Assembly (NCBI GenBank): GCA_029934175.1
Contig: JAOZMT010000001.1
Span: 19,286-83,285, forward strand
From: Victivallales bacterium
Lineage (GTDB): Bacteria > Verrucomicrobiota > Lentisphaeria > Victivallales > JAUVCU01
DNA: 64,000 nt
Reading direction: 5' to 3'
Below are positions 6,189-63,285 of this stretch, piece by piece. Position 1 is the first letter of the stretch; each line of letters opens with the position of its first letter. The notes beneath the pieces were generated by a model, which had not been told where the DNA came from, ran no database searches, and saw only the letters and a program-made list of their open reading frames with translations. The translations under genes and the position numbers were made by a program.

Positions 6189-6209
6189 ATTTGATTGGGA
6201 GGATTAGAA

Positions 6210-12200: not shown

Positions 12201-15200
12201 AAACGTACTGCTGCAACTTCGGTCTGGGAAGATGAAGAAATAATTACTGATAAAGCAGAAGATCAAATTCAACCTTCAATAAGTGTAGATAGTTATTCTA
12301 ACATTAATGTCATTTGGACTGGAAAAGCATGGGGATTATTTACGAATCATTTTAATATTCAATATAAACAAAAAACTGCAAGTGCTTGGTCTTCAATAAG
12401 ACATATAACTGATACTTCAAATGATCATTATTGGCCAAATTTTATTTCTAGTATTTATCCAATAATTGATGAAGTACATACTAACATTCCCAAAACAGGT
12501 TATGCTTTTAGTTGGATAGATAAAAGTGATTTAAGATATTATGTTAGTTCAGATTTAGAATGGGAAATACCAGAAAATAAATTTTTGATTGCACAAAATA
12601 TAGATTATTTAGGACAACATCCTTTAGCAAGAGATTCCGATGGAAGATTATGGATTGCATATTCTAAAAAAATAGGTGATTATTATCATATTTTTGTTGC
12701 ATATTCAGAAGATAATGGAAAAACATGGATTGAAGAACAGATTACATCAGGAAATAGGCATCAGAAATATAGCTCCATTGTAATAGATTCATTGAATAAT
12801 ATACATTTGGTTTACTTAGATTGTACGGATCAGTTAAATATTTGTTATAAAAAAGGAAAATTTGGAAATTGGTCAGATGCTGAAATAATAGATACTAGTT
12901 TAGAAGAATTTAATCCAATAACTATTGCAATAGATAGTCAAGATAATATTCATGTTGCATGGAAAAAGTTTGATACTACGGAAAATTTGACCTATATAGC
13001 ATATAAGAAGAAAACCGAAAGTGGATGGCAAAATCTAGAAGAAGCAAGTCCTAAGCATAATTATGATGATTATCCTTACATTGCCATTGATGATAATGAT
13101 AATGTGCACTTAGTTTTTACGGGAAAATATGGGATAAATGGCCATTCCAATGTCCAATATAGAAAAAGGACTAGTTCTGGTTGGCAATCTAGAATAGCTC
13201 TTGAGAATGTAGATTATGAAAGTGAAAATTGTTATCTTTGCTTAGATGATGATGGAAATATTTACGTGTCTTGGAATAGTGGTGCAAATATTTATACTAG
13301 AAGCTATATAAATGGCGAATGGAAAGATAAATATAAACTTACCAATTTGCCAGAAGGAACAGATTTGGTTTCCAAAATTCCCACTTTATCTTCAACCAAG
13401 GGTGGGAAAATACATGTAATATATATAGGAATGACAGAAGATTCGCCGACGCCAATGTATTATCATTCAGAAAAATCTGTAGCAACAACTGATTGGTCTG
13501 ATTCTGAAAATATTTTGGATATATATTCATATTATGAAGGGCCAGAGAGATTGATTTGGGCAAATTGGCCGCAAATATCTTATTTTAAGCCTAATAGACC
13601 AAAATCTGGTTATGCTTTTGTTTATGAAGATTTATTTAATAAGGAATTATGGTTTTTTAGAAGTTTAGATTTGAAATGGGATAAGTTTACTACTGCGACT
13701 GAAAGATTTATACTTTCTTATATCAAATGTAATTTATTAACTGAATCTTCTGTAAATTATCAAGTGGATTTACTGAATTTAAAAGAAAAGTTATGTCAAT
13801 ATAATGTTGATAGTTATTTATGTCTTGCTAAATTATTGAACATTGAAGCATTATTATTAAAGGAACTTTATAAATCTTATGATATAGATTTAAAATTTGT
13901 TGGGATGAAAAAATTAAATGTAAATACTTGCTTGCGCAAGCCAAACATATTAGAATATAATATTGATATGTTCATTATAAAAGATGGTGTGATTTTTTCA
14001 GAAACATTATTAAAAGGTAAAGCAGACTATAATTATTTTTTAGATACTTTGATTCAAGAATTAAATAAAACTTCAAATTATAATGAAGATGTCCTTTTGA
14101 AAATTGAAAAAAGTATAAATCTAAATATAGATTCAATTTTAAAACCTACTAAAAGCTTTGATTTAGACATTTTGTTAAAAGGTTTCGGAATAGTATTGAA
14201 TTATCCAATTGATATGTGTATTAATGATACATATATTTCACAGTTTAATATCGATTCAATTTTGAGTACTTTTGGTAATAAATCTTATTCGGTTGATATG
14301 TTAATTCCAACATTGAACCGTAATGTGATTTCAATTGATATGATTATATCAAATAAATTTACAAAGTCACTTTCATTATCTAATTCTTTAGTTTATAATT
14401 TTAAATCAACCGTTCTTCTACCTTTCTTATTAGATTTAAGAAATGTTTTAATTAATGAATTACTTTCACCAAAATACAAAGGATTTTATTTGAGAAATTC
14501 AATAGCTAATGTTGATATTTTTAAGTCATTGAGTTTAGTTAATAGCTATGAAAAATTTGCAGCAAATCAATCATTGATAAATGAATTGTCAGAAGTATTA
14601 AATAAAATCTTGTATTTATTAAACGCATTGGCCAATATTAATATTGAAAATCGTCAATTTATTGTTAATTCATTACAGCAATTAGTAAAAACTAATCAAT
14701 TACAAAATGAATTAGGTGATGCTTTTTCTTCGATATTAGCGATTTTGAATGATTTAGTTAAACCAATAAGTAAGACAGAAACGATATCTTCTGATATCCT
14801 AAATTATTTAGTAACAAATCAATCATTAAGAAATGAGCTTTCGTATTTGTATCCTTCAGAGCAACAAATAGAAGGAGAAGAAATTTGTACAAGATTTTTG
14901 GAATATAACGATTGGGATATCAAATTAGACGGAACTTCTATAAAAGATAAAGTAACAGAAATTAATGTTTATAGAAGGGAAAGTGAAATTTTCAATCATA
15001 TAGAACTTACAATAGTTGATCCTAAGTTATTTAAGCAATGTGATCCATATTATAATAGTGGATTAGAAAGAATTGAACTAAGGACTAATGACAAAACTAT
15101 GAAATTTTTACTTGAAAGTAGAGAAGGTTCCGAAGAAAATCGTGAATTTAGTATTTGGGGAAGATGCAAAGCAGCAATCTTATCAGAACCATTTTCCATA

Positions 15201-24278: not shown

Positions 24279-26501
24279 CTATTTTTCAAAACAAAATTCA
24301 AAAACTTCTTCTATGCTTTTAACAAATTTGATATTGATTTTAGATTTTGTTTCTTCATCTATATCTGCTAAGTCAAATTTATTTCCAACTGGAATTAAGA
24401 CATTTTTAATTCCTTCTCTAACAGCAGCAGTTATCTTTTCCTGTAATCCGCCAATTGGCAATACCTTTCCAGTTAAGCTCAATTCACCTGTCATTGCGAT
24501 GTCTTCCTTAACTTTTTGTTGTTTAACTGCCGATAATACAGCAGTTGCAATAGCAATTCCAGCAGAAGGCCCATCTTTTGGAACAGCTCCTGGTATAGCA
24601 TGGATGTAAATGTCAACATCATTTGGCCAATCTTTATATAATCTTTTAACATTAGCGATAGCAATATTTACACTTTCCTTGATAACATCCTTCAAATTAC
24701 CACTTATGTGAATTTTTTGTTTTTCTTCTTCTTTTGGAACTAATGTCACTTCAATGGGTAATATACTACCGCCTGTTCCAGATACTGCTAGGCCGTTTAC
24801 GATGCCAATTCCTTCTAATTTATATTTATAGATTGGTTTTTGTAAATAATATTTCACATCATCTTTCGTTATTATTTCCTTTTTAATTCCTTTTTCAAAA
24901 TAGTCTTTTAATGCTTTTCTCAAAATAGTTCTAATTTTTTCATCTAATTTTCTAACGCCAGCTTCATTGGTATATTCTTTGATAACTTTAATAATAGCTT
25001 CATCTTCAAATCTAATATCAAATAACTTATCAATTCCAACTTCTTTCTTCTCTTTTGGAATTATATAATCTTTTGCAATATATAATTTTTCAATATCTGT
25101 ATAGCCATTTAATTCTATAACTTCCAATCTATCTAATAGGATTGGATTAACATTTTCAATATAATTACCTGTTAAAATAAATAATACTTTACTTAAATCA
25201 AATGGTACTTCTAACCAATGATCTCTAAATTCACGATTTACAGCAGGATCAAGAATTTCCAAAAGAGCAGCTTGTGGATCGCCATGTATTGAATATCGTC
25301 CGACTTTATCTATCTCATCTAATATTATTACAGGATTTTTAGATTTAGCCAAATGAATTCTTTGCATAATTACGCCTGCGCTAGAACCAACGTAGGTTCT
25401 GCGAAAACCTTTTAGAAAATGTGGATCAGAAACTCCACCCAATGATATTTGAATGCATTTTCTTCCTAGTGCTTTTGCAATTGATTGCGCCAAAGTAGTT
25501 TTTCCACATCCCATTGGGCCTATAAAAGTTAAAATATTAGATTTTGGCCCTTTTACTTTCCAAACAGCTAAATATTCTAAAATTCTTTCTTTTGCTTTTT
25601 CCATTCCATAATGTGTTTTATTTAAATGTTCTTTAATTGAATTTAAATCTAAATTATCTTCTGTATAAGTATTCCAAGGCAATTCAAGAACAAAATTAAT
25701 ATAATCTTCAATATTGCCAGCTTCAGGTGAATTTTCATTTATGGCAGTTAATCTTTCAATTTCCCTATCAAGTTTATCTTTAACTTCTTTTGGAAGTATG
25801 TTTTGTTTTTCTTTGATTTTTTTCTTTAATTCTTCTACTCTCTTTTCAATACCAAGCTCCTTTTTTATAACTTCCATTTGTGCATGAAGAAAGTTTTTCT
25901 TTCCCCATTCTTCCAATTTCTTTTGTGTTTTCATTTGAAGTTCTTTTTTCCATTCAATTGCCTTATTTTCTTTTAAAATATAAAATAATAATTTTTCAAC
26001 TTTAATCTTTATGCTCCTTTCAAATAGAATTTCCTTTCTTGCTTCCATATCTGGGAGATATCCAGTTAATAGATGGATTCTATCCAAGAATGTATATTTT
26101 CCATCAGAGATAATATCAGGATTGATTCTAATGATATTAGCGATTTTATTGATATAATCTTGTTGTTCTAATAGCATTAAATTATATGCCTTTTCTTCTT
26201 CTTCATTTATATCCCAATTGAGTTCAAATTCATAAATAAAACCATCTTCTTTAATTTCAGCAACATATCTCACAACTAGAAATAAGTTAATAAATTCATC
26301 TATTGTTAAAAATTCAGAAATAACACCTTTGTTTTCTTCATATTCAAGAAAAATTTTAAATTGCTTTTCCTTTCCAAAAAAATCAATTAATTTATTTTCA
26401 CCTTTGATTCTAGTTGTTTGGAAAGGACAAGCAATAATTGTAGAAGGAATGACTGGCACTTCAATGACTTTGTCTTTATCTTTTAATTTTGCTACTTTCA
26501 T
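24279..26501 (-). CDS. lon: ATP-dependent Lon protease (LonA type, full length)
   Basis: Walker A GPMGCGKTT and Walker B VIILDEIDK. Catalytic Ser motif PKDGPSAGIA and Lys motif PIGGLQEKITAA. LonA-like N-domain with the MEVIKKELG helix. AGGAG RBS. Confidence 0.92.
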   Translation of the reverse strand: MKVAKLKDKDKVIEVPVIPSTIIACPFQTTRIKGENKLIDFFGKEKQFKIFLEYEENKGVISEFLTIDEFINLFLVVRYVAEIKEDGFIYEFELNWDINEEEEKAYNLMLLEQQDYINKIANIIRINPDIISDGKYTFLDRIHLLTGYLPDMEARKEILFERSIKIKVEKLLFYILKENKAIEWKKELQMKTQKKLEEWGKKNFLHAQMEVIKKELGIEKRVEELKKKIKEKQNILPKEVKDKLDREIERLTAINENSPEAGNIEDYINFVLELPWNTYTEDNLDLNSIKEHLNKTHYGMEKAKERILEYLAVWKVKGPKSNILTFIGPMGCGKTTLAQSIAKALGRKCIQISLGGVSDPHFLKGFRRTYVGSSAGVIMQRIHLAKSKNPVIILDEIDKVGRYSIHGDPQAALLEILDPAVNREFRDHWLEVPFDLSKVLFILTGNYIENVNPILLDRLEVIELNGYTDIEKLYIAKDYIIPKEKKEVGIDKLFDIRFEDEAIIKVIKEYTNEAGVRKLDEKIRTILRKALKDYFEKGIKKEIITKDDVKYYLQKPIYKYKLEGIGIVNGLAVSGTGGSILPIEVTLVPKEEEKQKIHISGNLKDVIKESVNIAIANVKRLYKDWPNDVDIYIHAIPGAVPKDGPSAGIAIATAVLSAVKQQKVKEDIAMTGELSLTGKVLPIGGLQEKITAAVREGIKNVLIPVGNKFDLADIDEETKSKINIKFVKSIEEVFEFCFEK

Positions 26502-30003: not shown

Positions 30004-30708
30004 TTATGGCCATTCGGCAATTATTTCCCATTTTTTAAGTAAATAAAATTTTCCTTCTTTATCTATTATTAAACTTGTACAGCTATCCAACATATCACCC
30101 AATTGGAAAATTACATGTCCACTTTCTCTTTTTATAATTCCACACCAGTGCGTGTGTCCAAAAATTAAATTTTTATTTGCTTTGTAAGCATTATTCAATA
30201 CTTTTTTAACTGTAATATCATAAATTTTTTGCTTTTGTCCATATTTAGCTTTTCCTGGAGTAACAAAATATGGTATTAACCAACTAAAAAATTTATATAA
30301 CCATACATGTTTACATATAGGATCAAATTGATGTCCATGTAAGATACAGAATGTAGTTTCATTAACAGATATATAATCTCTATCGCTATCAGTATAAGAT
30401 GGAAGCCCAAAAACTTTGCCAGATTCCATGTCGTGATTTCCTCTTAATAAAAATAGTCTATTTAGCTGCTTTAATTTCCTTAGTAAGCCTATTTCAATAA
30501 TACCTTTTTTTCTAACTTCATCTTCCTTACATTCTATTAATTCAAAAACATCACCTAACCCATAGACCTTAGCTTTGCTATAGTCTATAACCTTCATAAG
30601 CCATTCGGTAAAAAATTCATTATTTCTTGGAATGTGACTGTCACTGAAAAACATTTTTTCAGCGTTTTTTAGAAGCTCTTTAATTTTCATTTCAATCAAT
30701 TCCTCCAT
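30004..30708 (-). CDS. calcineurin-like metallophosphoesterase (LpxH / Mre11-SbcD-type motif set)
   Basis: Motifs SDSH, GLGDVFE, RGNHD, LHGHQFD and GHTHW occur in the canonical order. The start abuts the Ku stop. Confidence 0.8.
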   Translation of the reverse strand: MEELIEMKIKELLKNAEKMFFSDSHIPRNNEFFTEWLMKVIDYSKAKVYGLGDVFELIECKEDEVRKKGIIEIGLLRKLKQLNRLFLLRGNHDMESGKVFGLPSYTDSDRDYISVNETTFCILHGHQFDPICKHVWLYKFFSWLIPYFVTPGKAKYGQKQKIYDITVKKVLNNAYKANKNLIFGHTHWCGIIKRESGHVIFQLGDMLDSCTSLIIDKEGKFYLLKKWEIIAEWP

Positions 30709-31416
30709 TTATTTTTTTCCATTGAGAGATTCCTTTAATAAATCAACAAGACTTGTTGCTACCTTTCCATTTTTCTTTTTAGCCCTTTTCTTTCTATTTG
30801 TCAAATCTAAGGCTACCTGTTTTATAAATTCTCCCTTGTCAAAAAATGTGTATTCTTCCTTGTTTTTTTCCTTTACAATTCTATCAAAAAGTTCTTTTTC
30901 TTTTTTTGTCACTTTTACTTTTGGAATTTCAATTTTGATATCCCTAATTGGCCTTATCCGTGCCATGAGTAACTGTCCATCAGATGGAAATACAACAACA
31001 TTAGTTATGTTTCCTCTTAAAATCATATGGCCTAACCATTTATAATTAGCTATTAGACTTATCAATTTATCATCTTTTTCTGCTTCCAATAGATATAACT
31101 CACCCGCAAAAAGCAATGGATTGATTTCTTTTATTGTTTTAATCAAATTGATTACTTTGCCTTCATGCTTTAGCTGATTCAAATCTTCTTTATCAAAGAA
31201 AACTAACTTTTCATCATCTAATTTGATTCCTTTCAATATCTCTGTAACTTCTTTTCCACAATTTCCACAAACCTTAACATATCTCACTCTTTCTTTGCAG
31301 CAAGATGAATATTCATGAAAAACATTTCCATTAATGTCTTCATTTAATTTGTAAACGCCAACATTAGTACTTATTAAATCATTTACCTTAATTTTTAATG
31401 TTGCTATCTTTTTCAT
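30709..31416 (-). CDS. ku: Ku-like DNA end-binding protein
   Basis: Colinear with bacterial Ku (for example B. subtilis YkoV). The matches are VRYVKVCGNCGKEV..ILKG (vs IKYEKVCTNCEKTL..IVKG), FFDKEDLNQL, INLIKTIKEINPLLF and LLMARIRP.RDI. GGAGG RBS. Confidence 0.8.
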   Translation of the reverse strand: MKKIATLKIKVNDLISTNVGVYKLNEDINGNVFHEYSSCCKERVRYVKVCGNCGKEVTEILKGIKLDDEKLVFFDKEDLNQLKHEGKVINLIKTIKEINPLLFAGELYLLEAEKDDKLISLIANYKWLGHMILRGNITNVVVFPSDGQLLMARIRPIRDIKIEIPKVKVTKKEKELFDRIVKEKNKEEYTFFDKGEFIKQVALDLTNRKKRAKKKNGKVATSLVDLLKESLNGKK

Positions 31417-31436: not shown

Positions 31437-31464
31437 TAATAATCATTATTGATTTAAAAGTCAA
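31437..31464 (-). promoter_or_regulatory. conserved early promoter TTGACT-N13-TGATTATTA
   Basis: The - strand reads ggcTTGACTtttaaatcaataaTGATTATTA. It overlaps the vWA gene stop, upstream of ku. Confidence 0.65.
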
Positions 31465-33182
31465 GCCTTGCTTAAAATTTCATTTAAATTTTTGACATAG
31501 GCATCAAATGTTGGAGAAAGATATTTTTTAAAATACCTCATTAGTCTTGGAATATGTATTTTTCCCACTTGATCTAGAGCCAACTTTTTCCTTATCAATA
31601 AAAATATAATGTTTTGATTGTAACCAATCATTTTATCTATTCTTTCTAACTCATAAGGATAAAAATGCATATCTGTTAGAATTATAAATAATTTTTCATC
31701 GCTATCATTTAATCTATTTATTTCTTGCTCAACTTTGCTATATGAAGTTCCACCACCAACATCTTTGAAAAATTCTTCTACATTTCCTTTTTTATTCCAT
31801 CTATATACTTTAGTATTGAATTTATAAAGTTCAAAATTATCCAAATCAGCATTTTTCTTAAAGGCTTTGACTGTTATTATCGCCCATTTGATTTGTTCAG
31901 GTGTCATGCTACTGCTTATATCAACAAAAAGATAAATCTTCTTTTCTTCCGCTTCAATAATTTCCATTTCAAATAAATTTGTAATATCTTTAGTAAACCA
32001 ATTTTCTAATTCATTGGTTAAATGGATACCATTTTCAAGCTTTTGCCTAACTTCCTTTGGAATTATCTTTATTTTTTCTATACTCTCTTCATTCTTTTTG
32101 GTTAATCTTAAATTCCTATAATCATATATAGTTCTAAACAAATTAGTAATATCTTCAAAGCCTACGTTTCCGTTAACCATTGTTCTGTTAACGCTTGCCA
32201 ATTTATATTTTAATTTATTAGCTTTCTTTCTTATATCTTCAAATTTAGAATAGCTTCCTATTTCCAATAGTTTGTAAAGGTCAAGTAATTGTTCACTGAT
32301 TTTAATATTAAATGCTCTTTCAAATTCGTCTTTTGAAATTAATTTATCTTCAAGATTTTGTTCCAATAAACGATTAAGTAATACTTTATATTGACTAACT
32401 TGTGTTCTAATTTGCAAATTTTTTGATGGATCTTGTTTTTCATCCATTTCAGCTTTTACCACTGCTGCAATTTTTTTCAAATCTTCTTTTTCTTCTTCTG
32501 TAAATAACTGACTTTTGTTTATATCTGTATTAGTTACAATTTCTTTTGACTTTTTCTTTCTTTCTTTTGGAATTTCAATTTCCAAAAATCCTAAAATGTC
32601 ATGTGCAAGTTCGATTTCTTTATCTATGGACAATTTTTTAAATCTTAAAAAGTTTATAGCTTTACCAAACTTTTTGACTATTTCATAAGCAATTGCTTTT
32701 GCTTGATTATCAAAACTAATATCTGGATAACAATAGTATAGATAAAGATGTAACAACACATTTATATACAAAGGATTTTTCTTAAAGGCTTCCAAATTAT
32801 CTTCAATTACCTTTCGTGTAGCAAAATATCTAATTTTAGCCAAATTAGTATCTTTTAACTCCTTTTCCATCAAAGTTTTAGTATCAACTTTAATATCTTC
32901 TAATACATTAACAGTGAATTTTAATGCACTTGAACATCTATTTGCCAATTTCATTTGATAAGATACTGGCGTATATAAGATATGCGCTCTTTCATGGAAT
33001 AATAGGTGTAATAGAATTTGCCTATTTGCGTCATCAATTTCTGCATTTAAATATTTTTCAGGAATATAGATAATTCTTTCTTTCAAATCGGTTTTTGGTG
33101 TATCTTTTGTGGCTATTATGTTTACATCTTCACTTTTAGTAAATGTATTAAAGATATATCTTAGACTTTCTAAATTATTCAT
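31461..33182 (-). CDS. metallopeptidase-like + vWA domain protein (DUF2201-type partner of AAA+ ATPase)
   Basis: N-terminal HExxH (LFHERAHILY). C-terminal MIDAS elements DISSSM, GGGTSY and ILTDMH. Its start overlaps the AAA+ gene stop (ATGA). Confidence 0.75.
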   Translation of the reverse strand: MNNLESLRYIFNTFTKSEDVNIIATKDTPKTDLKERIIYIPEKYLNAEIDDANRQILLHLLFHERAHILYTPVSYQMKLANRCSSALKFTVNVLEDIKVDTKTLMEKELKDTNLAKIRYFATRKVIEDNLEAFKKNPLYINVLLHLYLYYCYPDISFDNQAKAIAYEIVKKFGKAINFLRFKKLSIDKEIELAHDILGFLEIEIPKERKKKSKEIVTNTDINKSQLFTEEEKEDLKKIAAVVKAEMDEKQDPSKNLQIRTQVSQYKVLLNRLLEQNLEDKLISKDEFERAFNIKISEQLLDLYKLLEIGSYSKFEDIRKKANKLKYKLASVNRTMVNGNVGFEDITNLFRTIYDYRNLRLTKKNEESIEKIKIIPKEVRQKLENGIHLTNELENWFTKDITNLFEMEIIEAEEKKIYLFVDISSSMTPEQIKWAIITVKAFKKNADLDNFELYKFNTKVYRWNKKGNVEEFFKDVGGGTSYSKVEQEINRLNDSDEKLFIILTDMHFYPYELERIDKMIGYNQNIIFLLIRKKLALDQVGKIHIPRLMRYFKKYLSPTFDAYVKNLNEILSKA

Positions 33183-34303
33183 TTTATTGTCCTTATTTTA
33201 GTTGTTATTGCCGATTCTTTTGGAAGTTCACCTACAAGCCATCTCCACCAATCATCTTCAATTATTATGTCTTTTTTCATTTCTTTGTAATAATCTTTTA
33301 ATTTATCTATTGTTTTTTCTACTTTTTTCTTTTTCTCTTTCTCTTCTTCTTTAAGTAGTAACGTTTGCAACTTTTTCATGGCTTCGTCTTCTTCATTTAG
33401 CATTGCCTTATTTACAAAGGCAATTTCAAATGCTTCTTTTTTACTAAATCCAATATCTCGCAGTGATTGATATTGTTTTATAGTTCTAATACTGTACATG
33501 GTACGCATTTCGTTTCTATTAATCATTTTGACTGCTTCAATATAAAATCTTAAGATATCATCTTCAATCTTAAATTTTGTTGATAACTCTTTATCTGTAA
33601 AATGTGGAAATTTAATTATGATTAATCTATCTAGAAAAGCTGCATTAAAATTATTCGTACCGATATATCTCATATTTTTTTGGTTACATGCAAAAGCAAT
33701 TCTACATTCAGGATGAATTTTAACAGTTTTTCTAAGCTCAGGTATAAATAAGCTTCTATTTTCTGTCATTTCGTGAAACCTAAATGCAGCTTTGGCTGGC
33801 AATGCATTTATTTCATCAAATAAAATTAAGGATGGATTTTGTAGAAAATCAACCATTAATCCTGCTTCAAATGTAGTTTCATTATTTCTAATTTCCCTAA
33901 ATCCCAACAAATGATTAAATTTACTATTATCATCTAGACTTATTATTAAGCATGGCAAATTATGCTTGTAAGCATAATATCTGCAAGCATAAGTTTTTCC
34001 TGTGCCAGTTTCGCCAACCAAGAGTGCCATCTTATTAGCTTCCAAAATAGCATCCAACTTATTATCTATATCTCTGTGAATATAGTCTTTAAATTCGTCT
34101 TCATTTGGGATATAGACGTCTAATGGTTTAGAATGTACTTTACTTAAATGTTCATATGCTTCTTTTTCTTTGATGAATTTTCTATTGATAAGGCTGACTG
34201 TTGATTGACTAATGTTTAACTCTTCTGCTATATCCTTTTGTTTATAACCTTTTAATAGCATTTCTATTATTTTTTCCCTTTTTTTCTCTTTTATTTTTTT
34301 CAT
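33179..34303 (-). CDS. HTH-fused AAA+ ATPase (AAA_5 / MoxR-CbbQ-CobS-like)
   Basis: N-terminal sigma-r4/LuxR-like HTH (KQKDIAEELNISQSTVSLINRKF). Walker A VGETGTGKTY and Walker B LILFDEINA. GGAG RBS and ATGA coupling on both sides. Confidence 0.8.
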   Translation of the reverse strand: MKKIKEKKREKIIEMLLKGYKQKDIAEELNISQSTVSLINRKFIKEKEAYEHLSKVHSKPLDVYIPNEDEFKDYIHRDIDNKLDAILEANKMALLVGETGTGKTYACRYYAYKHNLPCLIISLDDNSKFNHLLGFREIRNNETTFEAGLMVDFLQNPSLILFDEINALPAKAAFRFHEMTENRSLFIPELRKTVKIHPECRIAFACNQKNMRYIGTNNFNAAFLDRLIIIKFPHFTDKELSTKFKIEDDILRFYIEAVKMINRNEMRTMYSIRTIKQYQSLRDIGFSKKEAFEIAFVNKAMLNEEDEAMKKLQTLLLKEEEKEKKKKVEKTIDKLKDYYKEMKKDIIIEDDWWRWLVGELPKESAITTKIRTIK

Positions 34304-34794
34304 TTTATCACTCCTTTCTCTTCTACTAAATAATCATTCTTTATTTCAATGTCAAGAGGTAAATATACTATCAATTTGTTTTTGGTTATATGCTCCAAAA
34401 ATCGTTTTGCCTTTTCATCATTATTTGGTGCTTGCCACCTAGTGGAATGACATAATTTCCTTATTTGTTCTCTACATTTATTTAATGTTTTCCATCTTTC
34501 AGCTAATATTTTTCTTTCCTTACTATTTTTTGGCAATTTTCGTAATTGGTTGTTTAGTTCTGTAATTTCTTCTTTCCATTGATTCTTCAATTTTATTAAT
34601 TTTTCTCTAACTGCTAACCACTTAAATACTCCTCTAGCTAGAAGTATCATATATGTTAGTCTTTCATCAATACCAAATAGATTTTCAAAGTCTCTAGCTA
34701 TATATCTAGGCTTATTTTGTTTAAAACTATTTATCGTTTTTGGATTTAACTCAAATATTTTTTCCATATCTTTCATACTAATCAGTTTCATCAA
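34300..34794 (-). CDS. hypothetical protein
   Basis: 164-aa ORF with a GGAGG RBS (aaGGAGGattgATG). Confidence 0.65.
   Translation of the reverse strand: MMKLISMKDMEKIFELNPKTINSFKQNKPRYIARDFENLFGIDERLTYMILLARGVFKWLAVREKLIKLKNQWKEEITELNNQLRKLPKNSKERKILAERWKTLNKCREQIRKLCHSTRWQAPNNDEKAKRFLEHITKNKLIVYLPLDIEIKNDYLVEEKGVIK
34328..34355 (-). promoter_or_regulatory. conserved early promoter TTGACA-N13-TGATTATTT
   Basis: The - strand reads TTGACAttgaaataaagaaTGATTATTT. It lies in the 3' end of ORF 34300-34794, upstream of the AAA+ gene. Confidence 0.6.
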
Positions 34795-36272: not shown

Positions 36273-37028
36273 TTACATTAAATAATCATTCTTTAATAGA
36301 AAGTCAATATATGTTTTCAAAGATTCTTTATAAAAGTTTTGTGTATCTAATTTCACTATTCCTGGTGCAGTATTAACATCTAATACCCAAATGATATTAT
36401 CATCATCGATAGCAATATCTATGCCTGCAAAATCTAATCCACAAGCCAATAATGCTTTTTTAGCCATTTGACTTATTTCTGGAATATTATCAATCTTTCT
36501 AAATTCATATCTATTTATTGCAGAATTTCTTATAATAAATGTATCATGTTTAATATCTCTAGGTATTTTCTCATAAGTCAAGTAATTAAATTCTTTGTTT
36601 GATAACTTAGATATATGAACTCTAAACTCTCTGGCTATTGGAATACATCTGCTAAAAATGGAAATTTTAACTTTTCTTTCTTTAATAATTTTAAGATCAT
36701 GCCTAGACATTAATAAAATTATACCATTCCCACCTTCACTATAATTTTTATATGCATAAATGGGAAAGTTATCTGCATTCAAACAATAAGGCGTTCTAAC
36801 CCTATTCTTTTTCATATAATAATAAAATAATCTCCTATTCTTTGCCACTTCAATAGCAAAGGCATTATTGATTTCAACATGTATAGTATTTATTTTTTTA
36901 GTGCTATTTCCAAATCTAATAATAATATCTTCATTTTTCAATAAGCTATCACTATTGCCATATGTATAATTACAATCTAATAAACTTGCCAATTTTTCTC
37001 CACTTTCGTTACTTGTTAGCACCATCAT
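36273..37028 (-). CDS. ATP-grasp ligase (RimK-like)
   Basis: PIYAYKNYSEGGNGIILL, REFRVHI, IIRNSAINRYEF and the C-terminal AKKALLACGLDFAGIDIAID..IIWVLDVNTAPGI follow the RimK/ATP-grasp motif order. Confidence 0.7.
   Translation of the reverse strand: MMVLTSNESGEKLASLLDCNYTYGNSDSLLKNEDIIIRFGNSTKKINTIHVEINNAFAIEVAKNRRLFYYYMKKNRVRTPYCLNADNFPIYAYKNYSEGGNGIILLMSRHDLKIIKERKVKISIFSRCIPIAREFRVHISKLSNKEFNYLTYEKIPRDIKHDTFIIRNSAINRYEFRKIDNIPEISQMAKKALLACGLDFAGIDIAIDDDNIIWVLDVNTAPGIVKLDTQNFYKESLKTYIDFLLKNDYLM
36279..36307 (-). promoter_or_regulatory. conserved early promoter TTGACT-N13-TGATTATTT
   Basis: The - strand reads TTGACTttctattaaagaaTGATTATTT. It overlaps the 3' end of the ATP-grasp gene. Confidence 0.6.
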
Positions 37029-37314
37029 CTTTCAACTCCTTTTCTATTTCCTTTTTTATTCTATCCATTTCCTTTTGGAATTCATTGCCATGTCCTTTGA
37101 CTTTCAAATGTGCTAATTCATGTGCTAGCGTTTCAATAACATCTTCTTCTTTTTTTGCATATTTGGCGTTTAATAGAATTTCTATACCATTAGTTTGGAG
37201 ATTCCTAGTGCAAACTCCTCTAATGTTTTTATCCAATTGTGTACTAATATGAATATCTACTTTCTCTTTGGTTATCTTTTCAGCTATTTCTTTTAATTTC
37301 ATCCACCTTAACAT
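37009..37314 (-). CDS. SprT/WLM-like zinc metalloprotease (minimal)
   Basis: HELAHLKVKGHGNEF fits the HExxHxxxxxH zincin motif. 101 aa. Confidence 0.6.
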   Translation of the reverse strand: MLRWMKLKEIAEKITKEKVDIHISTQLDKNIRGVCTRNLQTNGIEILLNAKYAKKEEDVIETLAHELAHLKVKGHGNEFQKEMDRIKKEIEKELKDDGANK

Positions 37315-37315
37315 A

Positions 37316-38005
37316 TTAATTCTCCTTAATTGGAACTAATTTACCTGTTTTATTGTCTATTTTATATTTTTTTACATGATTGCTATGATGATGACCATAT
37401 CCATAACCTCCATATTCATAGCCGCCACCATATGTATAAACTTTAGTTCCAAAATAAGAAGCATTACTAAAATAGATTCCTTTCTCTTCAATAAAATTAC
37501 CATATAGTATTAGCTTATATGGCAAAAGTATAATAAATTTACCAGTATCAATAGTTTCCATGTAGTTTAAACCCAAAATACTCAATAAAGTTGCAACAGC
37601 TCTACTATCTGAGAACTCTCCATCAGGGAATTTAATCCCTTTTCTTATGCAATAATAAGCTACTAAGTTTAATTTTTCTCTCCAATTTGATATCACTCCA
37701 TTATGGAATAAAACACCTTTTCTAGTTTTGCCTTCAAGTGGATTTTCTAGACTGATCTTAAATGGATGCGTTAATTCTGGAGTTTTCCCACCAGATGTAC
37801 CTGTTCTAAAATGTACAACATGTGGAAAATGACTAAAATCTTTGTAAAATTCCTTAAAGCTTTCCAAATTCATAAATCCTTTCTTGAAATATACTAATCC
37901 TTTCTTTTGCCATCCTATGCCTATTCCATCACTGTTTGTGATGAAACAGTTTTTTAGCTCTTCATTATTTAACTTTCTATATTTGCAATAAGCTATTATA
38001 CACAT
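37316..38005 (-). CDS. class II (Ntn) glutamine amidotransferase-like protein, copy 1
   Basis: The start was moved to the RBS-supported ATG at 38005 (GGAGGttaaaATG). That gives MCIIAY, with the Cys2 nucleophile typical of Ntn amidotransferases. Most positions are identical by eye to ORF 47011-47694. Confidence 0.7.
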   Translation of the reverse strand: MCIIAYCKYRKLNNEELKNCFITNSDGIGIGWQKKGLVYFKKGFMNLESFKEFYKDFSHFPHVVHFRTGTSGGKTPELTHPFKISLENPLEGKTRKGVLFHNGVISNWREKLNLVAYYCIRKGIKFPDGEFSDSRAVATLLSILGLNYMETIDTGKFIILLPYKLILYGNFIEEKGIYFSNASYFGTKVYTYGGGYEYGGYGYGHHHSNHVKKYKIDNKTGKLVPIKEN

Positions 38006-38006
38006 T

Positions 38007-39494
38007 TTAACCTCCAAAATTTATTTTGATATATCTCCTTAATGGTTTGAATATTTTTGCAACATCATCCAAGTTTTGCCTTAAGTGCCATGCAATTCCA
38101 ACTTTGCGTTTATCATTTTCAGTATATGTGTGAGATATGCGTTTGTAACCTTTAACTCTAATTCCTGACGTTACTTTTCCTCTATTTTCTCTCAATCCAA
38201 ATAATACTAACTTTACTGGCTTTTTCAATCTTAATGTTTTTGCCCAATCTGCTACTTTATTTGCAATTTTGTGATTCCATTCGTCTGCAAAGATAATTTC
38301 CAAAGGAAATGTCTTTTTTCTTCTTGTGTTATTTAACTTAAGTTTCCAAAATTGGAGAATGCTATATGGTGGTTTTGGCGGATTATTTATGAATTCTAAA
38401 AACATTGCGGCTTCTTTTCGTGTTAATTTTGCTATTTTTACATAATCATCCTCAGTTGGTGGATCATTGTATTCTATTTGCTTTCCCTTTGTAGCCAATT
38501 TGGTTAAGTTTTTTATAATCTTCATTGAGATTCTGGCGATTTCTGGATGTGCAAAGATAGCCGCACTTGGTGTACGATATTCAAAACCCCAGTCTTTAGT
38601 TTCAAAACTAGATAGTTCACCGTAACCTTCTCTATAACATAATCTGTTCGTTCTCTTTCCTAAAAAGTCATCATAAGCGGTTAAAAGTGGATATGATGGC
38701 GTAACAGGTTTAACTTTTGTACCAAACTTAAATCCTACATGAATATGTCCACCTAACGGCGCTTCATTTGCAATTTGAACATCAAACCCATCGTCTTTAA
38801 CCCGCTTTAATAATCGCTTTATGTTACTTATTACGATTCTAGGATTTGATGATGGATCTGGTCTTAATTCTAGCTGTGTACCAGCTCCATCACAACCTAT
38901 TGGATTTTCTAAGCTATCGTATACATCTCTTGCCCTTACCCAAGTATTTCTCCTTATCATAAATTCTGGATCACATCCTAAAGTAATATCAATTTTTACT
39001 TTTGGATTTTTGGCCTTTTCTACTTTGCAATTTGGCCAATTAGTATCAATGCCTAACACTCTTACTATTGCCTTCAATGCCTTGTATGCGTGTGTTAAAT
39101 TATCATATTTGTGAGTAAAATCAGTTAATAAAAGTACCTTGTGTTTAGGTAAATAATGTCCAACAAAAATTCCATTAATTTTTAACTTGATTGTATCTAC
39201 AATCTCAAAGCCAGTAAAATTATTTGTCCAATCATGGAAAATGCTTACTTGATTAAAAAATTCATCATCTATATGAATATCAATCAAAGCAAAGGGCCTA
39301 AGTCTTATCCCATTATTTTCTGCATAGATATAAACACTAAATGGTGAGTCAAGCCAAGCGGTGCAATGATTTGCAAAAAGTCTTATATATGGAAATTTCT
39401 GTGCGTAACGCCTAATAAATGATGGCAAAGCTTCAGATGGACTTCTTACGTATCTAGCCCTATCTCTTGTCAATTCTAATCTTAGTCTTTTCAT
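38007..39494 (-). CDS. glutamine-synthetase-fold carboxylate-amine ligase (Amidoligase_2-like), copy 1
   Basis: Ordered motifs GCDPEF, GCDGAGTQLELRP, GGHIHVG and WGFEYRTPSA resemble the metal/ATP ligand pattern of GS-like amidoligases. Paralogue of 45557-46996. GGAGG RBS. Confidence 0.55.
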   Translation of the reverse strand: MKRLRLELTRDRARYVRSPSEALPSFIRRYAQKFPYIRLFANHCTAWLDSPFSVYIYAENNGIRLRPFALIDIHIDDEFFNQVSIFHDWTNNFTGFEIVDTIKLKINGIFVGHYLPKHKVLLLTDFTHKYDNLTHAYKALKAIVRVLGIDTNWPNCKVEKAKNPKVKIDITLGCDPEFMIRRNTWVRARDVYDSLENPIGCDGAGTQLELRPDPSSNPRIVISNIKRLLKRVKDDGFDVQIANEAPLGGHIHVGFKFGTKVKPVTPSYPLLTAYDDFLGKRTNRLCYREGYGELSSFETKDWGFEYRTPSAAIFAHPEIARISMKIIKNLTKLATKGKQIEYNDPPTEDDYVKIAKLTRKEAAMFLEFINNPPKPPYSILQFWKLKLNNTRRKKTFPLEIIFADEWNHKIANKVADWAKTLRLKKPVKLVLFGLRENRGKVTSGIRVKGYKRISHTYTENDKRKVGIAWHLRQNLDDVAKIFKPLRRYIKINFGG

Positions 39495-39808: not shown

Positions 39809-39837
39809 CAAATAATCATTTTTCACTTCAATGTCAA
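39809..39837 (-). promoter_or_regulatory. conserved early promoter TTGACA-N13-TGATTATTT
   Basis: The - strand reads TTGACAttgaagtgaaaaaTGATTATTT, in the gap upstream of ORF 39516-39779. Confidence 0.65.
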
Positions 39838-39843: not shown

Positions 39844-40506
39844 TTATAACCAAATCCCATAATTAAATGTAAAATTGATTTTATTTCCATTCTTATTCTT
39901 TTGTGCAATTTCTCTATCTTTCTTTTTGATTTTTATCCAATCTACATGCTGACCATCTGTCCATACACTATTTTCATTTCTAACAATTAGCCCTTCATAT
40001 CCCAATTCGTATATCCACTTTTTAATCAACTGCTGCAATTCTTTCCAATCCATAACCATCCACATTGGTGCAATTCTTAAATGCTCAAAATGTTCTGTTA
40101 ATTTAGTATAATGACTAAAATAATTAAAAGTTTGCCTAGCATCAAAATTAGTTCTATCTAATTTTTGCAAAATCCCAAATAAAGCTAGATTCAAATCATC
40201 GCTAGCCTTGTTTCTTAGTAATTGATAAAAATCTTCTTTTGTTCTTCCTGCGCCATAGTATAACTCTGCCAAATAGATTCCATCTGGAAGGTTTAATTTT
40301 TTGAATTCATGCAATGCTGGATAATCCAATCTATATCTGCCGTATTTATCTTTATTAACGCTAAATACTGTATCCTTTCTTTTGATAATATATTGTAATT
40401 CACCGTCTAGTTTCAAAGATACATAACATGGAAATTTAATATTATGCTTTGACCCTCTAAATTTACATAATGGAAGCTTATAGTTCTTCTTGGAGAATGT
40501 TTTCAT
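39844..40506 (-). CDS. minimal ATP-dependent DNA/RNA ligase (nucleotidyltransferase domain only)
   Basis: Motif I SLKLDGE, motif III GIYLAELYY, motif IV YEGLIVRN and motif V DWIKIKKK. Only ~30 aa follow motif V, so no OB domain is apparent. The start was moved to the GGAGG-supported ATG at 40506. Confidence 0.7.
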   Translation of the reverse strand: MKTFSKKNYKLPLCKFRGSKHNIKFPCYVSLKLDGELQYIIKRKDTVFSVNKDKYGRYRLDYPALHEFKKLNLPDGIYLAELYYGAGRTKEDFYQLLRNKASDDLNLALFGILQKLDRTNFDARQTFNYFSHYTKLTEHFEHLRIAPMWMVMDWKELQQLIKKWIYELGYEGLIVRNENSVWTDGQHVDWIKIKKKDREIAQKNKNGNKINFTFNYGIWL

Positions 40507-40681
40507 TTTTACCTCCATAAATTTCATCGGCTTCAATCTCTATATATAATCTCCTATACAACTGATATAATTTCCAATGTTTCAAGTTTAAATCGTTCCT
40601 ATTTAATTGGTCCTCAATCTCTTTTTCATAAAATTTTACAAATGCACAAGTCATTTCCTTGTATGTTTGCTTTCCATTCAT
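40478..40681 (-). CDS. hypothetical protein
   Basis: The start was moved to the ATG at 40681 (GGGAGG RBS). Confidence 0.5.
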   Translation of the reverse strand: MNGKQTYKEMTCAFVKFYEKEIEDQLNRNDLNLKHWKLYQLYRRLYIEIEADEIYGGKNENILQEEL

Positions 40682-41149: not shown

Positions 41150-41177
41150 TAGTAATCATTTTAAATGTAAAAGTCAA
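41150..41177 (-). promoter_or_regulatory. conserved early promoter TTGACT-N13-TGATTACTA
   Basis: The - strand reads TTGACTtttacatttaaaaTGATTACTA. Confidence 0.6.
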
Positions 41178-42573: not shown

Positions 42574-42601
42574 TAATAATCATTTTGAATATAAAAGTCA
42601 A
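42574..42601 (-). promoter_or_regulatory. conserved early promoter TTGACT-N13-TGATTATTA
   Basis: The - strand reads TTGACTtttatattcaaaaTGATTATTAaaaagatATG. Confidence 0.65.
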
Positions 42602-44630: not shown

Positions 44631-44658
44631 TAATAATTATTTTAAACATGAAAGTCAA
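44631..44658 (-). promoter_or_regulatory. conserved early promoter variant TTGACT-N13-TAATTATTA
   Basis: The - strand reads TTGACTttcatgtttaaaaTAATTATTA. It overlaps the stop of ORF 44642-45031. Confidence 0.5.
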
Positions 44659-45050: not shown

Positions 45051-45078
45051 TAATAATCATTTCAAATATAAAAGTCAA
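45051..45078 (-). promoter_or_regulatory. conserved early promoter TTGACT-N13-TGATTATTA (leftward)
   Basis: The - strand reads TTGACTtttatatttgaaaTGATTATTAagaagaaaaGGAGatttaaATG. Confidence 0.7.
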
Positions 45079-45490: not shown

Positions 45491-45500
45491 AAAGTGGGTA

Positions 45501-45528
45501 TTGACTGTAAGACCAATAATGATTATTT
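45501..45528 (+). promoter_or_regulatory. conserved early promoter TTGACT-N13-TGATTATTT (rightward)
   Basis: TTGACTgtaagaccaataaTGATTATTT. It lies inside the track's GTG-started ORF, which argues for the ATG at 45557 as the true start. Confidence 0.7.
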
Positions 45529-45556
45529 ACATCTTAGATTTAGTTTGGAGGTGATC

Positions 45557-46996
45557 ATGCAGAAGGTAGTCAAGCTAAAATTAGAGAATTCTTTTGATAC
45601 AAACGGTGCGGAGGCCTTGCCTAAGTTTTTAAGGACTTATGGCAAGGCTTTTTCTTTTATTAGAGGTTTTTATAATCATAGGGCTATAGATTATAAGTCA
45701 AAATCTGTTTATATATACCCTTATACCAGTATAACATATTGGTATTCTATAGTTATCCATTTTGATATTGATCTCCAATTTAATGGAGATCAAGAGGAGC
45801 TATTCTATGATTTAAGCTTAAACTATGCTTATAACAACATTAGTGATGGAATTTTAATAAAAAACAAAGGCAGGGTAATTGGCTATTATGATTTGAGATA
45901 TCAAAGATTGATCCTAAGTGACATTACCCATTATGATGATGAATTATATCTAAAAAATGCTTATATTGTTTTGAAAGCAATTACAAGATTTTTTAACTTA
46001 AAAAAGTTATGGCAAAGGAAATATATAGATATAACTGTTGGCTGTGATCCAGAATTTTGTTTGGTTGATAGATATGGTGATATTGTACATGCCAATGATT
46101 ACATTGACGATGATTATGGTGAAAATGAAATAGGTGTAGATGGTAGCGGAGATCAGTTAGAGCTTAGACCTGCACCAGGTACACCAAACCAGGTTATAAA
46201 TAACCTAAGAAGCTTGATCAAGCAAGTAAAAGAGGCAGGTTTTGGCATGGCGTTGACCGCTGATTTTAGTTTAGGCGGACATATTCATTTTGGTTTGGGT
46301 GGACAGGTGCATCCATCTAGAAGCTTACTAGATGTATTAGACGATTTTATTGGCATACCAACAAGGCATATGTGCGCCAGATATGGCTATGGTGCGCTAA
46401 GTAGTTATGAAACTAAGGAGTGGGGTTTTGAATATCGTACACCAAGTGCGGCTATCTTCTTATTTCCTAGCATTGCTAGGATAATTCTAAAATTGGCTAA
46501 AAATATAGTAGCAAAGGCAATAAAAAATCAAACGATTGCATACAATAATCCTCCACTATTAGAAGATTATGTAAAATTAGGTCTAACTAAGAATGAGGCC
46601 CAAAAACTATTAAATTTTTACAGCACCAAAAACTATTTGGGCTATAATGTGATTGGATATTGGCTAAATAATAAAAGGATGTATCAAAGAAAAACCTACC
46701 CATTGACATTGGAATTTGAGGATAGATGGAGCTTCTATACAAAGAAAAATCTCTTAGAATGGGCAAAGCATATGAAACTAAGAAGACCCATCACTTTAGT
46801 GTTATACGGACTTATGGAAAGTAGAGGAAAAGTGAACACGATAAAAATACCAGGGTATGGCGTAATACAACATGAGAAGAGTGAAAGTAGCGGCGGCTAT
46901 GCCATTGGTATATGTTATGACTTAAGGCAAGGCGCTAATGATTATAAGATTATTAGGGCAATTAGGAAATATTTAAGGGAAAAATTTAAGGTGTAA
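45557..46996 (+). CDS. GS-fold carboxylate-amine ligase (Amidoligase_2-like), copy 2
   Basis: GGAGG RBS then the ATG at 45557. Motifs GCDPEF, GVDGSGDQLELRP, GGHIHFG and WGFEYRTPSA. Colinear paralogue of 38007-39494. Confidence 0.55.
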   Translation: MQKVVKLKLENSFDTNGAEALPKFLRTYGKAFSFIRGFYNHRAIDYKSKSVYIYPYTSITYWYSIVIHFDIDLQFNGDQEELFYDLSLNYAYNNISDGILIKNKGRVIGYYDLRYQRLILSDITHYDDELYLKNAYIVLKAITRFFNLKKLWQRKYIDITVGCDPEFCLVDRYGDIVHANDYIDDDYGENEIGVDGSGDQLELRPAPGTPNQVINNLRSLIKQVKEAGFGMALTADFSLGGHIHFGLGGQVHPSRSLLDVLDDFIGIPTRHMCARYGYGALSSYETKEWGFEYRTPSAAIFLFPSIARIILKLAKNIVAKAIKNQTIAYNNPPLLEDYVKLGLTKNEAQKLLNFYSTKNYLGYNVIGYWLNNKRMYQRKTYPLTLEFEDRWSFYTKKNLLEWAKHMKLRRPITLVLYGLMESRGKVNTIKIPGYGVIQHEKSESSGGYAIGICYDLRQGANDYKIIRAIRKYLREKFKV

Positions 46997-51134: not shown

Positions 51135-51460
51135 TGTTTGATGGGCCTAAGTTTTCTGCCCAGAAAAAATTAGGTCTATTTAAGTTAGTTCAATTTGACA
51201 AAGTTTGTTTGGCCTAACTAAGTTAGTTCCACAAAACAAAGTTAGTTCGCTTCAATAAAGTTAGTTCAGTGGAACTAAGTTAGTTCGACCTAACAAAGTT
51301 AGAAAAAAAAACATAGTTCACTTCAATGAAAGTTAGTTCAATCTAACAATGTTTGTTAGGCCGAACTAACTTAGTTTGGCCTAATTAACTTTTTAAGACG
51401 GAACTAAGAATTTGTTCCAGAAAAGTTAGGCCTATCTAAGATTGTCTATTGGAACTTGTC
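51135..51460. repeat. iteron cluster B, including an array of AAGTTAGTTC with a 19-bp period
   Basis: AAGTTAGTTC starts at 51182, 51220, 51239, 51258, 51277 and 51330, and 51220-51277 are spaced exactly 19 bp apart. A degenerate unit is at 51296. Palindromes GAACTAAGTTAGTTC (51271) and GAACTAACTTAGTTT (51363) are present, along with GGCCTAAS copies. Confidence 0.85.
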
Positions 51461-52470: not shown

Positions 52471-52508
52471 GGCATAGGAAATTTTAAAAATCCTATGCCA
52501 TTTTTTTA
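52471..52508 (+). terminator. rho-independent terminator
   Basis: Stem GGCATAGGA / TCCTATGCC, an 11-nt loop, then ATTTTTTTA. Confidence 0.8.
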
Positions 52509-52553
52509 TGCAAAAATCGTTCACTATGCAAAAATTATGCCAATATGCAAAAA
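52507..52553 (+). repeat. three direct TATGCAAAAA repeats (18-19 bp period)
   Basis: Starts at 52507, 52525 and 52544. Related ATGCAAAAAA copies occur at 54377 and 55937. Confidence 0.7.
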
Positions 52554-52588
52554 CTATGCCACGATAGAATATTTTAATAATGTTTAGT

Positions 52589-52840
52589 GGACCTAACTTT
52601 TGTGGAAAAAATCCTAGGCCGCTTCAATAAAGTTAGTTCACTTCAATAAACTTAAAGCACTTCAATAATGTTAGGTCGGCCTAACATTCTCCAAAGAAAG
52701 TTAGATTATGTAAAAAAATGTCAAGATTGCTAAACAAAGTTAGGCCCAGAAAACTTTGTTAGACGGCCTAAGAATGTCTATTGGAACTAACAAAGTTAGT
52801 CCAGGCATCTTCCGAACTAACTTTGTCTAATGGGCCTAAC
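52589..52840. repeat. iteron cluster C, including 3 x 19-bp tandem units CTTCAATAA-N-GTTAGKYC
   Basis: Units at 52622-52640, 52641-52659 and 52660-52678. Additional GTTAGKYC / RGNCTAAY copies and the near-palindrome GGAACTAACAAAGTTAGTCC are present. Confidence 0.85.
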
Positions 52841-54838: not shown

Positions 54839-54857
54839 TTTTTTACTCCTTCTTTAG

Positions 54858-55979: not shown

Positions 55980-56007
55980 TTGACTTTTCGATTAGAAATG
56001 ATTATAT
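55980..56007 (+). promoter_or_regulatory. conserved promoter TTGACT-N13-TGATTATAT (rightward)
   Basis: TTGACTtttcgattagaaaTGATTATAT. A second TTGACT at 55929 lies upstream. Confidence 0.6.
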
Positions 56008-63284: not shown

Positions 63285-63285
63285 T

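Follow-up and report, generated by a model that had tools for sequence, protein, structure and literature searches.

What does a viral gene pair annotated for cobalamin synthesis do when its ATPase carries a predicted DNA-binding domain and its neighbors form a set of DNA end-joining genes? CobS/CobT-like pairs are among the most widespread annotated "auxiliary metabolic genes" of phages and archaeal viruses, and two incompatible guesses about the viral pair are in print, a boost to cobalamin synthesis and a chaperone for virion assembly. Liu et al. 2021 (PMC8651126) described a widespread viral cobST cluster, in which cobT is often annotated as a peptidase, and proposed that it hijacks host CobN. 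Iyer et al. 2021 (PMC7824862) described in jumbo phages a MoxR ATPase with a von Willebrand factor A (vWA) co-chaperone bearing an N-terminal metallopeptidase, and proposed a role in virion assembly. Here, the question is raised by two overlapping genes in a 64,000-nt stretch of contig JAOZMT010000001.1 from a Victivallales bacterium. This whole stretch is called the window below and is numbered from its first letter; features lie on the minus strand unless they are marked (+) or given without regard to strand (the repeat arrays, the gene that these flank, and ORF 3172-4770). [quoted passage not shown]

The module is very probably a phage MoxR-type AAA+/metallopeptidase-vWA pair of the kind annotated as CobS/CobT or "porphyrin biosynthesis," and within this family it is a very divergent, HTH-tagged version of a known phage gene pair. 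As to its role, we favor, with a rough probability of 0.4 to 0.45, a DNA-tethered remodeler and protease with AAA+, MIDAS, and zincin parts that would act on a DNA-bound protein. Such a third role, on DNA, is favored by the DNA-binding fusion of the ATPase, by the tight linkage to Ku, phosphoesterase, and ligase genes, and by a conserved peptidase site that is missing from the aligned position of the one cellular CobT solved. If it were true, annotations across a large class of viral genes would call for revision, and the pair would be a candidate for removing Ku from DNA in prokaryotic systems. A preliminary description of the locus had covered the two genes themselves; it had not included the surrounding Ku, phosphoesterase, and ligase genes, the promoter-like elements on either side of the pair, or the prior descriptions of the architecture (PMC7824862, PMC8651126).

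The HTH-bearing ATPase and its CobT-like partner

Both open reading frames (ORFs) of the preliminary description were recovered with all the motifs that it had listed. The ATPase gene (33179..34303; ORF list, Pfam, and PHROG) encodes 374 aa with GETGTGKTY and LILFDEINA, and the CobT-like metallopeptidase-vWA gene (31461..33182; ORF list, profile searches, and BFVD) encodes 573 aa with FHERAH, DISSSM, GGGTSY, and TDMH. The reported overlap between the ATPase TGA and the CobT-like ATG reads in the sequence as a 4-nt ATGA (33179..33182; junction aaaATGAat) with AAGGA 9 nt upstream, and it is kept in the relatives L001 to L005. A second ATGA, preceded by AAAGGAG, joins the ATPase start to the end of a 164-aa ORF (34300..34794). 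This ORF is kept in the clade, at 80 to 92% identity in L001 and L003, and had no family match in Pfam or PHROG; its product is possibly a third component of the module.

The HTH occupies residues 4 to 42 of the ATPase (34178..34294; Pfam), KREKIIEMLLKGYKQKDIAEELNISQSTVSLINRKF. Residues 2 to 46 scored 27.5 bits against HTH_23 (gathering cut-off, 24.6) and 26.9 bits against GerE/LuxR (cut-off, 23.5); Sigma70_r4, Sigma70_r4_2, HTH_28, and HTH_7 matched weakly, just under their cut-offs, and models of ECF sigma factors matched as well (NCBIfam and Pfam scans). With these scores, and with the HTH kept in every member of the window's clade (P0014 to P0016, L001, and L003), the proposal of a sigma-region-4/LuxR-like HTH fused to an AAA_5 ATPase holds. 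The preliminary description had also called for a survey of homologues for the fusion: by Pfam, an HTH family matched in 1 of 34 sampled viral ATPases, that of the window, and in none of the 33 others; the fusion was found in the window's clade only. Annotated phage homologues, about 25% identical, align to the ATPase only from residues 25 to 90 onward, so that none covers the HTH, and no HTH was recognizable in their own N-terminal extensions. The ATPases of the sister clade described below have a different N terminus, for which hhalign against the window HTH was negative (probability, 0.3) and Pfam gave only a weak DUF7051 match. One further metagenome protein, P0024, in which the HTH-ATPase N terminus is joined to the body of a sigma-54 activator, is a probable assembly chimera and was excluded from the evidence, as was the metagenome protein P0031, a subtilase and an FG-GAP propeller followed by the CobT-like protein's C-terminal half; a real fusion is less likely than a chimera in either case. 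In a distant relative (L008, 3010-5362), the AAA_5 gene comes right after a separate gene for a 73-aa HTH_39 protein, and the downstream partner is a DUF7192 protein, not a vWA protein.

The AAA_5 core spans residues 94 to 227 (33623..34024), with Walker A at G97 to T104 and Walker B at D163-E164, and scored 54.7 bits against Pfam AAA_5 (cut-off, 22; E = 1.4e-14). G97, G100, G102, K103, D163, E164, N207, R226, and R273 are invariant across the 34 ATPases, the last three being the predicted sensor-1 Asn, Arg finger, and sensor-2 Arg. The ATPase has its full set of residues for binding and hydrolyzing ATP. The best PHROG was 249, the phage CobS-like family annotated "porphyrin biosynthesis," at 3.7e-31. 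Among PDB sequences, the AAA modules of Midasin matched best (9e-29 overall; 51.5 bits for the top single module), followed by CobS at 7e-6 and then CbbQ. The CobS equivalog TIGR01650 gave 17.6 bits, far under its cut-off of 558.55, and CbbQ_C, present in 18 of 34 relatives, was not found in the window ATPase by Pfam. A sigma-54 activator match in Pfam was marginal. PADLOC returned for the ATPase only weak P-loop matches to IetA over about 40 residues (best E = 9.4e-5) and for the partner none, and the suggestion of a conflict or defense system was not borne out.

The CobT-like protein had no direct match in Pfam (E ≤ 0.1), NCBIfam, or PADLOC, CobT (PF06213) and CobT_C (PF11775) included; its reading as a zincin-vWA protein therefore rests on other evidence, namely residue conservation, remote relatives, a profile match to CobT in the PDB, and a structural model. 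Conservation and the model delimit a zincin-like N-domain (residues 1 to 205; 32568..33182) with the HExxH at residues 63 to 67 (32982-32996; motif FHERAH) and E95-D96 (32895-32900) on the following helix, which also carries N92. Composition and the model delimit a charged, mostly helical linker (residues 206 to 410; 31953..32567). Conservation, the model, and Foldseek define a vWA domain (31461..31952) with an intact MIDAS (D421-x-S423-x-S425, T479, and D504). In 19 sequences, with identity down to 14%, E95, D96, D421, S423, and S425 are invariant, and H63, E64, H67, N92, T479, and D504 are at least 90% conserved; these columns correspond to a putative HExxH...N..ED metal-site signature and a complete MIDAS motif. 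The linker consists of 20% K+R and 18% D+E and is the fastest-evolving part of the protein, 57 to 78% identical to clade members compared with 72 to 88% in the flanking domains, which fits a flexible connector. The whole protein is 67 to 74% identical within the clade, compared with 79 to 93% for the products of neighboring genes, and is thus evolving faster than they are.

Relatives of the CobT-like protein were close or very remote. A word-indexed search of 5.8 billion proteins returned relatives of at least 67% identity throughout, and an exhaustive hidden Markov model (HMM) search of 1.84 billion cluster representatives returned 11 matches, the remote ones about 20% identical at E values of 5e-6 to 8e-4. 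These remote relatives carry a C-terminal Pfam VWA domain, and one N-terminal fragment among them is a Pfam CobT at 2.5e-14; a further search added P0041, a relative bearing CobT_C. With the remote relatives included, the family profile reached CobT in the PDB (9uka_G, 1.3e-8), followed by TRAP and integrin I-domains; the alignment of close relatives alone had found nothing in the same PDB search. The one PHROG match of the protein was that of its C-terminal part to PHROG 1314 (2.8e-9).

The AlphaFold model depended on the same widening of the alignment: eight close sequences gave a predicted local distance difference test (pLDDT) score of 49.6, which was unusable, and the 19-sequence alignment gave 69.7. 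The modeled N-domain has one helix, three strands, the HExxH helix (residues 52 to 70), and the E95 helix (residues 85 to 105), with pLDDT of about 62 to 94; the linker is long, helical, and partly of low confidence; and in the vWA domain DxSxS follows strand 1, T479 precedes a helix, and D504 follows strand 4, an arrangement in keeping with the vWA fold. Foldseek matched the model in the PDB to the vWA domains of integrin I, TRAP, and the anthrax receptor (probability, 1.0; target template-modeling [TM] score, 0.4 to 0.54) and, in BFVD, at full length to phage CobT, cobalamin biosynthesis, VWFA-domain, and metallopeptidase proteins, as well as to ORF892 of Acidianus two-tailed virus (ATV). 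The topmost Foldseek rows in the PDB were those of TROVE/Ro60, with a TM score of about 0.2 and a root mean square deviation of about 21 Å, a likeness that we rejected as reflecting a shared vWA domain only. By the order of its secondary structure elements, the N-domain is zincin-like and a putative metallopeptidase, and the protein as a whole is a remote CobT homologue with the same N-domain/linker/vWA order, linked through intermediates. The HExxH and vWA/MIDAS combination that had been proposed is thus supported by the conserved residues, remote relatives, PDB profile, and model. Its assignment to a DUF2201-type architecture stands for the order of domains, by analogy, and not for membership: neither DUF2201_N (PF13203) nor DUF2201 (PF09967) matched in Pfam at E ≤ 0.1, and detectable homology runs to CobT-like proteins instead.

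The pair itself is rare, and its wider family is not. No match was found by tblastn of the CobT-like protein against 50,697 phage records or by megablast of the 8-kb region, nor was any relative found in a GTDB scan of 185,579 species genomes; a metagenome scan yielded four contigs, all of the window's clade. Among 33 IMG/VR loci with ATPase relatives, a partner-family HMM detected an adjacent partner in 23, usually directly downstream of the ATPase gene and sometimes upstream, and at 21 of these loci Pfam found CobT_C in nine neighboring proteins and VWA in eight. Together with PHROG 249, the CobT profile match, and the full-length BFVD matches, these loci agree with the expectation that homologues of the two genes co-occur and that the pair is kin to the widespread CobS/CobT-like pairs of phages. 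At L009 (crAss-like phage cr114_1), the annotated gene gp002 (5719-6630) beside the CobS-like gene has in-frame stops near its end under translation table 11, perhaps because stop codons are recoded or because the annotation is faulty, and no HExxH or DxSxS was found there.

Ku, phosphoesterase, and ligase genes and a promoter-like element

Directly downstream of the pair lies a gene for a bacterial-type Ku of 235 aa (30709..31416; Pfam Ku, 9.9e-11; TIGR02772, 1.1e-14), and abutting it is a gene for a calcineurin-like metallophosphoesterase (30004..30708) with its DxH, GD, GNHD, and GHTH motifs all present. This arrangement is kept in five of five related contigs (L001 to L005). A small ATP-dependent DNA ligase of 230 aa with the motif KLDG (39844..40536; DNA_ligase_A_M, 27.5 bits against a cut-off of 26.2) is encoded on the same strand 5.5 kb upstream of the pair, beyond genes for an ATP-grasp protein, a SprT-like zincin, a GAT-II-like protein, and a COOH-NH2 ligase, also on that strand. 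Further downstream of the pair come an SNF2 helicase and Lon, and the gene order is kept in the five related contigs. The pair thus sits in a minus-strand block of DNA metabolism genes, with tail and tape-measure genes on the opposite strand at 1 to 21.6 kb. Ku, phosphoesterase, and ligase together form a set resembling nonhomologous end joining, which suggests phage-encoded end-joining or genome circularization.

The ATPases nearest to those of the window's clade, at 31 to 36% identity, belong to a sister clade (L006 and L012 to L016), whose partners carry HExxH, EDIRID, and DSSGSM. In this clade, a ligase gene lies directly upstream of the ATPase gene, with a 4-nt overlap in four of six loci (L006 and L013 to L015), and the window ligase is homologous to the sister-clade ligase (phmmer, 1.3e-22 to that of L013). 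Within roughly 8 kb at these loci, phmmer found no proteins of the window's block other than the ligase and the ATPase; the vWA partner was found by profile. More broadly, the neighbor families of 21 viral loci came chiefly from CobT_C/VWA partners and from genes of replication or repair, including ligase (5), DnaB (3), three DNA polymerases, SNF2, PC4, and spore-photoproduct lyase, and no capsid, tail, terminase, or recognized cobalamin-related family was present among the 25 neighbor families shown. In SSU5 and a crAss-like phage, the pair likewise lies among ligase, polymerase, helicase, and primase genes.

A repeat search revealed a 27-nt element, TTGACWTT-N4-T-N3-RAATRATTAYT, with the invariant core AATGATTATT, in nine copies in the window, compared with none expected from 100 shuffles; a general scan for sigma-70 promoters and terminators had given counts no higher than in shuffles. 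In it, TTGACT resembles a −35 box and TATTAA a −10 box, with a spacer of 17 nt. One copy (34329..34355; TTGACA, 17 nt, TATTTA) falls within the 3' end of the 164-aa ORF, 26 to 52 nt upstream of the ATPase ATG, and another (31438..31464) falls in the 44 nt that separate the CobT-like gene from Ku; the former recurs in L003, and the latter recurs in L001 and L002. Six more minus-strand copies (36281-36307, 39811-39837, 41151-41177, 42575-42601, 44632-44658, and 45052-45078) place eight of the nine at 31.4 to 45.1 kb, and the ninth is at 55980-56006 (+). In seven of the eight, an AAGGAG-type site and an ATG follow within the aligned span, coming about 15 to 25 nt after most aligned copies. The element looks like one promoter class driving an early or middle gene block. 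Since copies stand before both the ATPase gene and Ku, the ATPase and partner genes form a unit of their own, and no terminator-like site was found between the pair and Ku.

Several other features of the window were recorded. Arrays of a 19-nt iteron-like repeat with the core AAGTTAGTTC (51182-51391 and 52507-52674) flank an anti-restriction-like gene (51541-52458; PHROG 7245, 4.3e-65); they may be a replication origin or partition site and are a candidate target of the HTH protein. A phiEco32-type amidoligase cluster (36273-39494), predicted to be a peptide-tagging system, comprises an ATP-grasp gene (RimK-like, PHROG 2599), the SprT-like zincin (37009-37314; HELAH), the GAT-II-like protein (37316-38017), which begins MCIIAY, and the COOH-NH2 ligase (38007-39494), of which a second, weaker copy lies at 45494-46996 (+). 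The Lon-type protease of the window (24279-26501; 740 aa) is free of inteins, and its 88 to 91% identical orthologue in L003 (16132-19377; 1,081 aa) has intein/LAGLIDADG matches. After the tail-like genes comes a giant ORF of 3,368 aa (6195-16301, +) that had no PHROG match and whose internal 240- to 300-nt repeats are common to an upstream ORF (3172-4770). Two adjacent DNA methyltransferase genes, a phosphoribosyltransferase gene, an endolysin gene, and a tRNA-Ser(TGA) (60468-62008, 62724-63861, and 54857-54947) fit a phage genome having anti-restriction functions.

Proposed role of the pair and alternative explanations

Given the HTH, the Ku, phosphoesterase, and ligase surroundings, and the ligase directly upstream in the sister clade, a DNA-bound protein would be the likeliest substrate of the pair. 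By analogy with MoxR-vWA, chelatase, and Midasin systems, whose behavior is summarized in PMC7159879, the ATPase would form a ring on which the CobT-like partner docks, the MIDAS site of the partner would capture an acidic residue of a client protein, and ATP hydrolysis, transmitted via the charged linker, would remodel that client. Two further steps would be peculiar to the case at hand: the HExxH site would then cleave the client or a neighboring protein, and, in this clade, the HTH would hold the machine on DNA. The client would be a DNA-bound protein in end-joining, circularization, or replication of the phage genome. For example, Ku or ligase complexes might be loaded, removed, or processed, or host DNA-binding proteins might be cleared.

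Several points weigh against this proposal. DNA binding, ring formation, contact between the partners, and peptidase activity are all predicted, from sequence features and by analogy, and the HTH could merely autoregulate the ATPase gene. The top PDB matches of the model were mostly vWA domains and included no solved zincin, and the N-domain was modeled with only moderate confidence. No Ku turned up in the neighborhood of the 33 other viral loci; its adjacency to the pair is seen in just one clade, whose genomes are close relatives (at least 67% identical), and therefore counts as a single observation. Moreover, Ku has its own promoter-like element and so is not strictly in the unit of the pair. 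Finally, the sister-clade ligase may stand beside the ATPase gene because the order of the module was inherited.

The broader claim that phage "CobS/CobT" is a machine of DNA metabolism that loads, extracts, or cleaves DNA-bound proteins, working in this clade and its sister clade with a small ATP-dependent ligase and Ku and using the HTH as a tether, is one that we regard as rather unlikely. On this claim, topologically trapped Ku rings or ligase complexes, for example, would be stripped from DNA after end-joining or circularization, and the stripping of Ku would be the prokaryotic-virus counterpart of its p97-dependent removal in eukaryotes.

Of the two roles proposed in print, we found in the literature no experimental test on the viral pair, whether for the hijacking of CobN or for virion assembly, and nothing tying HExxH to phage CobT or the MoxR-vWA pair to a ligase. 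For the group 2.2 jumbo phages, the MoxR-vWA proteins of ATV served as the analogy for a proposed virion-assembly chaperone and protease (PMC7824862), with structural proteins folded or assembled by the pair and processed by the zincin, and the BFVD match to ATV ORF892 is in line with it. Nonetheless, it is unlikely here: the pair lies in the DNA metabolism block opposite to the tail and tape-measure genes, structural families are missing from the 25 neighbor families shown for 21 loci, and an HTH has no obvious use in assembling virions. Cobalt insertion is also unlikely, and a viral CobS/CobT that hijacks host CobN as an auxiliary cobaltochelatase and so raises cobalamin synthesis, as proposed for the viral cobST clusters (PMC8651126), is very improbable, even though the family profile reaches CobT in the PDB and the ATPase weakly reaches CobS. 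The ATPase is nearer to Midasin modules than to CobS and falls far short of the TIGR01650 cut-off; direct Pfam matches to CobT, CobT_C, and CbbQ_C are lacking; the HExxH, intact in the phage proteins, is missing at the aligned site of the one solved cellular CobT; and the window ORFs scanned showed no gene for cobalamin synthesis or for a cobalamin-dependent function. Nor would this reading account for the HTH fusion and the DNA repair context. Because of the DNA end-joining context and the contrast of the peptidase site with cellular CobT, the label "cobalamin biosynthesis" on the viral genes is probably wrong.

The surroundings of the pair also bear on two further explanations. It is distinctly unlikely that the pair serves host takeover or counterdefense by recognizing and destroying, early in infection, some host protein associated with DNA (a nucleoid or defense factor, for example). 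The block has many genes for protein modification and proteolysis (Lon, the SprT-like protein, ATP-grasp and COOH-NH2 ligases, and the GAT-II-like gene), an anti-restriction gene and methylases lie elsewhere in the window, and the CobT-like protein evolves faster than its neighbors; however, its fast-evolving part is the linker and not a recognizable recognition surface, no known defense or antidefense family was matched beyond the weak P-loop hits, and none of the evidence points to a host target. Transcription regulation, with the HTH-AAA+ protein binding the repeated elements and remodeling RNA polymerase or a repressor and the vWA-zincin protein as its cofactor, is quite improbable. It draws on the matches of the HTH to Sigma70_r4, Sigma70_r4_2, GerE, and ECF-sigma models, on the resemblance of the TTGAC core of the element to a −35 box, and on the distribution of the nine copies, eight of them in the same block, among these the copy just upstream of the ATPase gene. 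However, many families are matched by simple HTHs of three helices, so the likeness to sigma region 4 is unspecific; MoxR/AAA_5 proteins are not known as transcription activators, the sigma-54 activator match was marginal, and a conserved protease and MIDAS partner would be left without explanation.

Comparison with known systems

The likeness of the pair to described systems ranges from loose analogy to shared gene architecture. In the McrB/McrC system, an AAA_5-family NTPase bears a DNA-binding domain at its N terminus and the neighboring gene encodes the effector; this effector, McrC, is a nuclease, unlike the zincin-vWA protein, and the likeness of McrB to the window ATPase is one of analogy only. 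Proteins with DUF2201_N and DUF2201 have the same order, an HExxH domain and then a vWA-like domain. Midasin/Rea1 likewise couples an AAA_5 motor through a charged linker to a MIDAS domain, but this eukaryotic protein, which works on pre-60S ribosomes, is a single giant polypeptide with six AAA modules as well as the MIDAS, and it has neither zincin nor HTH.

Closer at hand is the aerobic cobaltochelatase CobS/CobT (PDB 9ujv and 9uka), in which an AAA+ ATPase is likewise paired with a partner that has an acidic linker and, at its C terminus, a vWA domain. Cobaltochelatase requires CobN, however, which was not seen among the window ORFs scanned, and solved cellular CobT, in the one cellular example, has DSMA.RQARH where the phage proteins have HExxH. 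An HExxH is also present in SSU5_049, a protein with strong Pfam CobT and CobT_C matches. The MoxR/metallopeptidase-vWA pair of group 2.2 jumbo phages is identical in architecture by its published description; virion assembly was proposed for it, whereas the window pair stands in a DNA repair and replication context and has an HTH. In the viral cobST cluster of tailed phages and archaeal tailed viruses, an AAA_5 gene likewise lies beside a gene for an HExxH/charged-linker/vWA-MIDAS protein, and what sets the window's clade apart is the HTH fusion and the adjacency to Ku. The two-gene architecture was thus already known (PMC7824862, PMC8651126), and what is new here is the HTH fusion, the bracketing elements, the Ku/phosphoesterase linkage, and the ligase of the sister clade.

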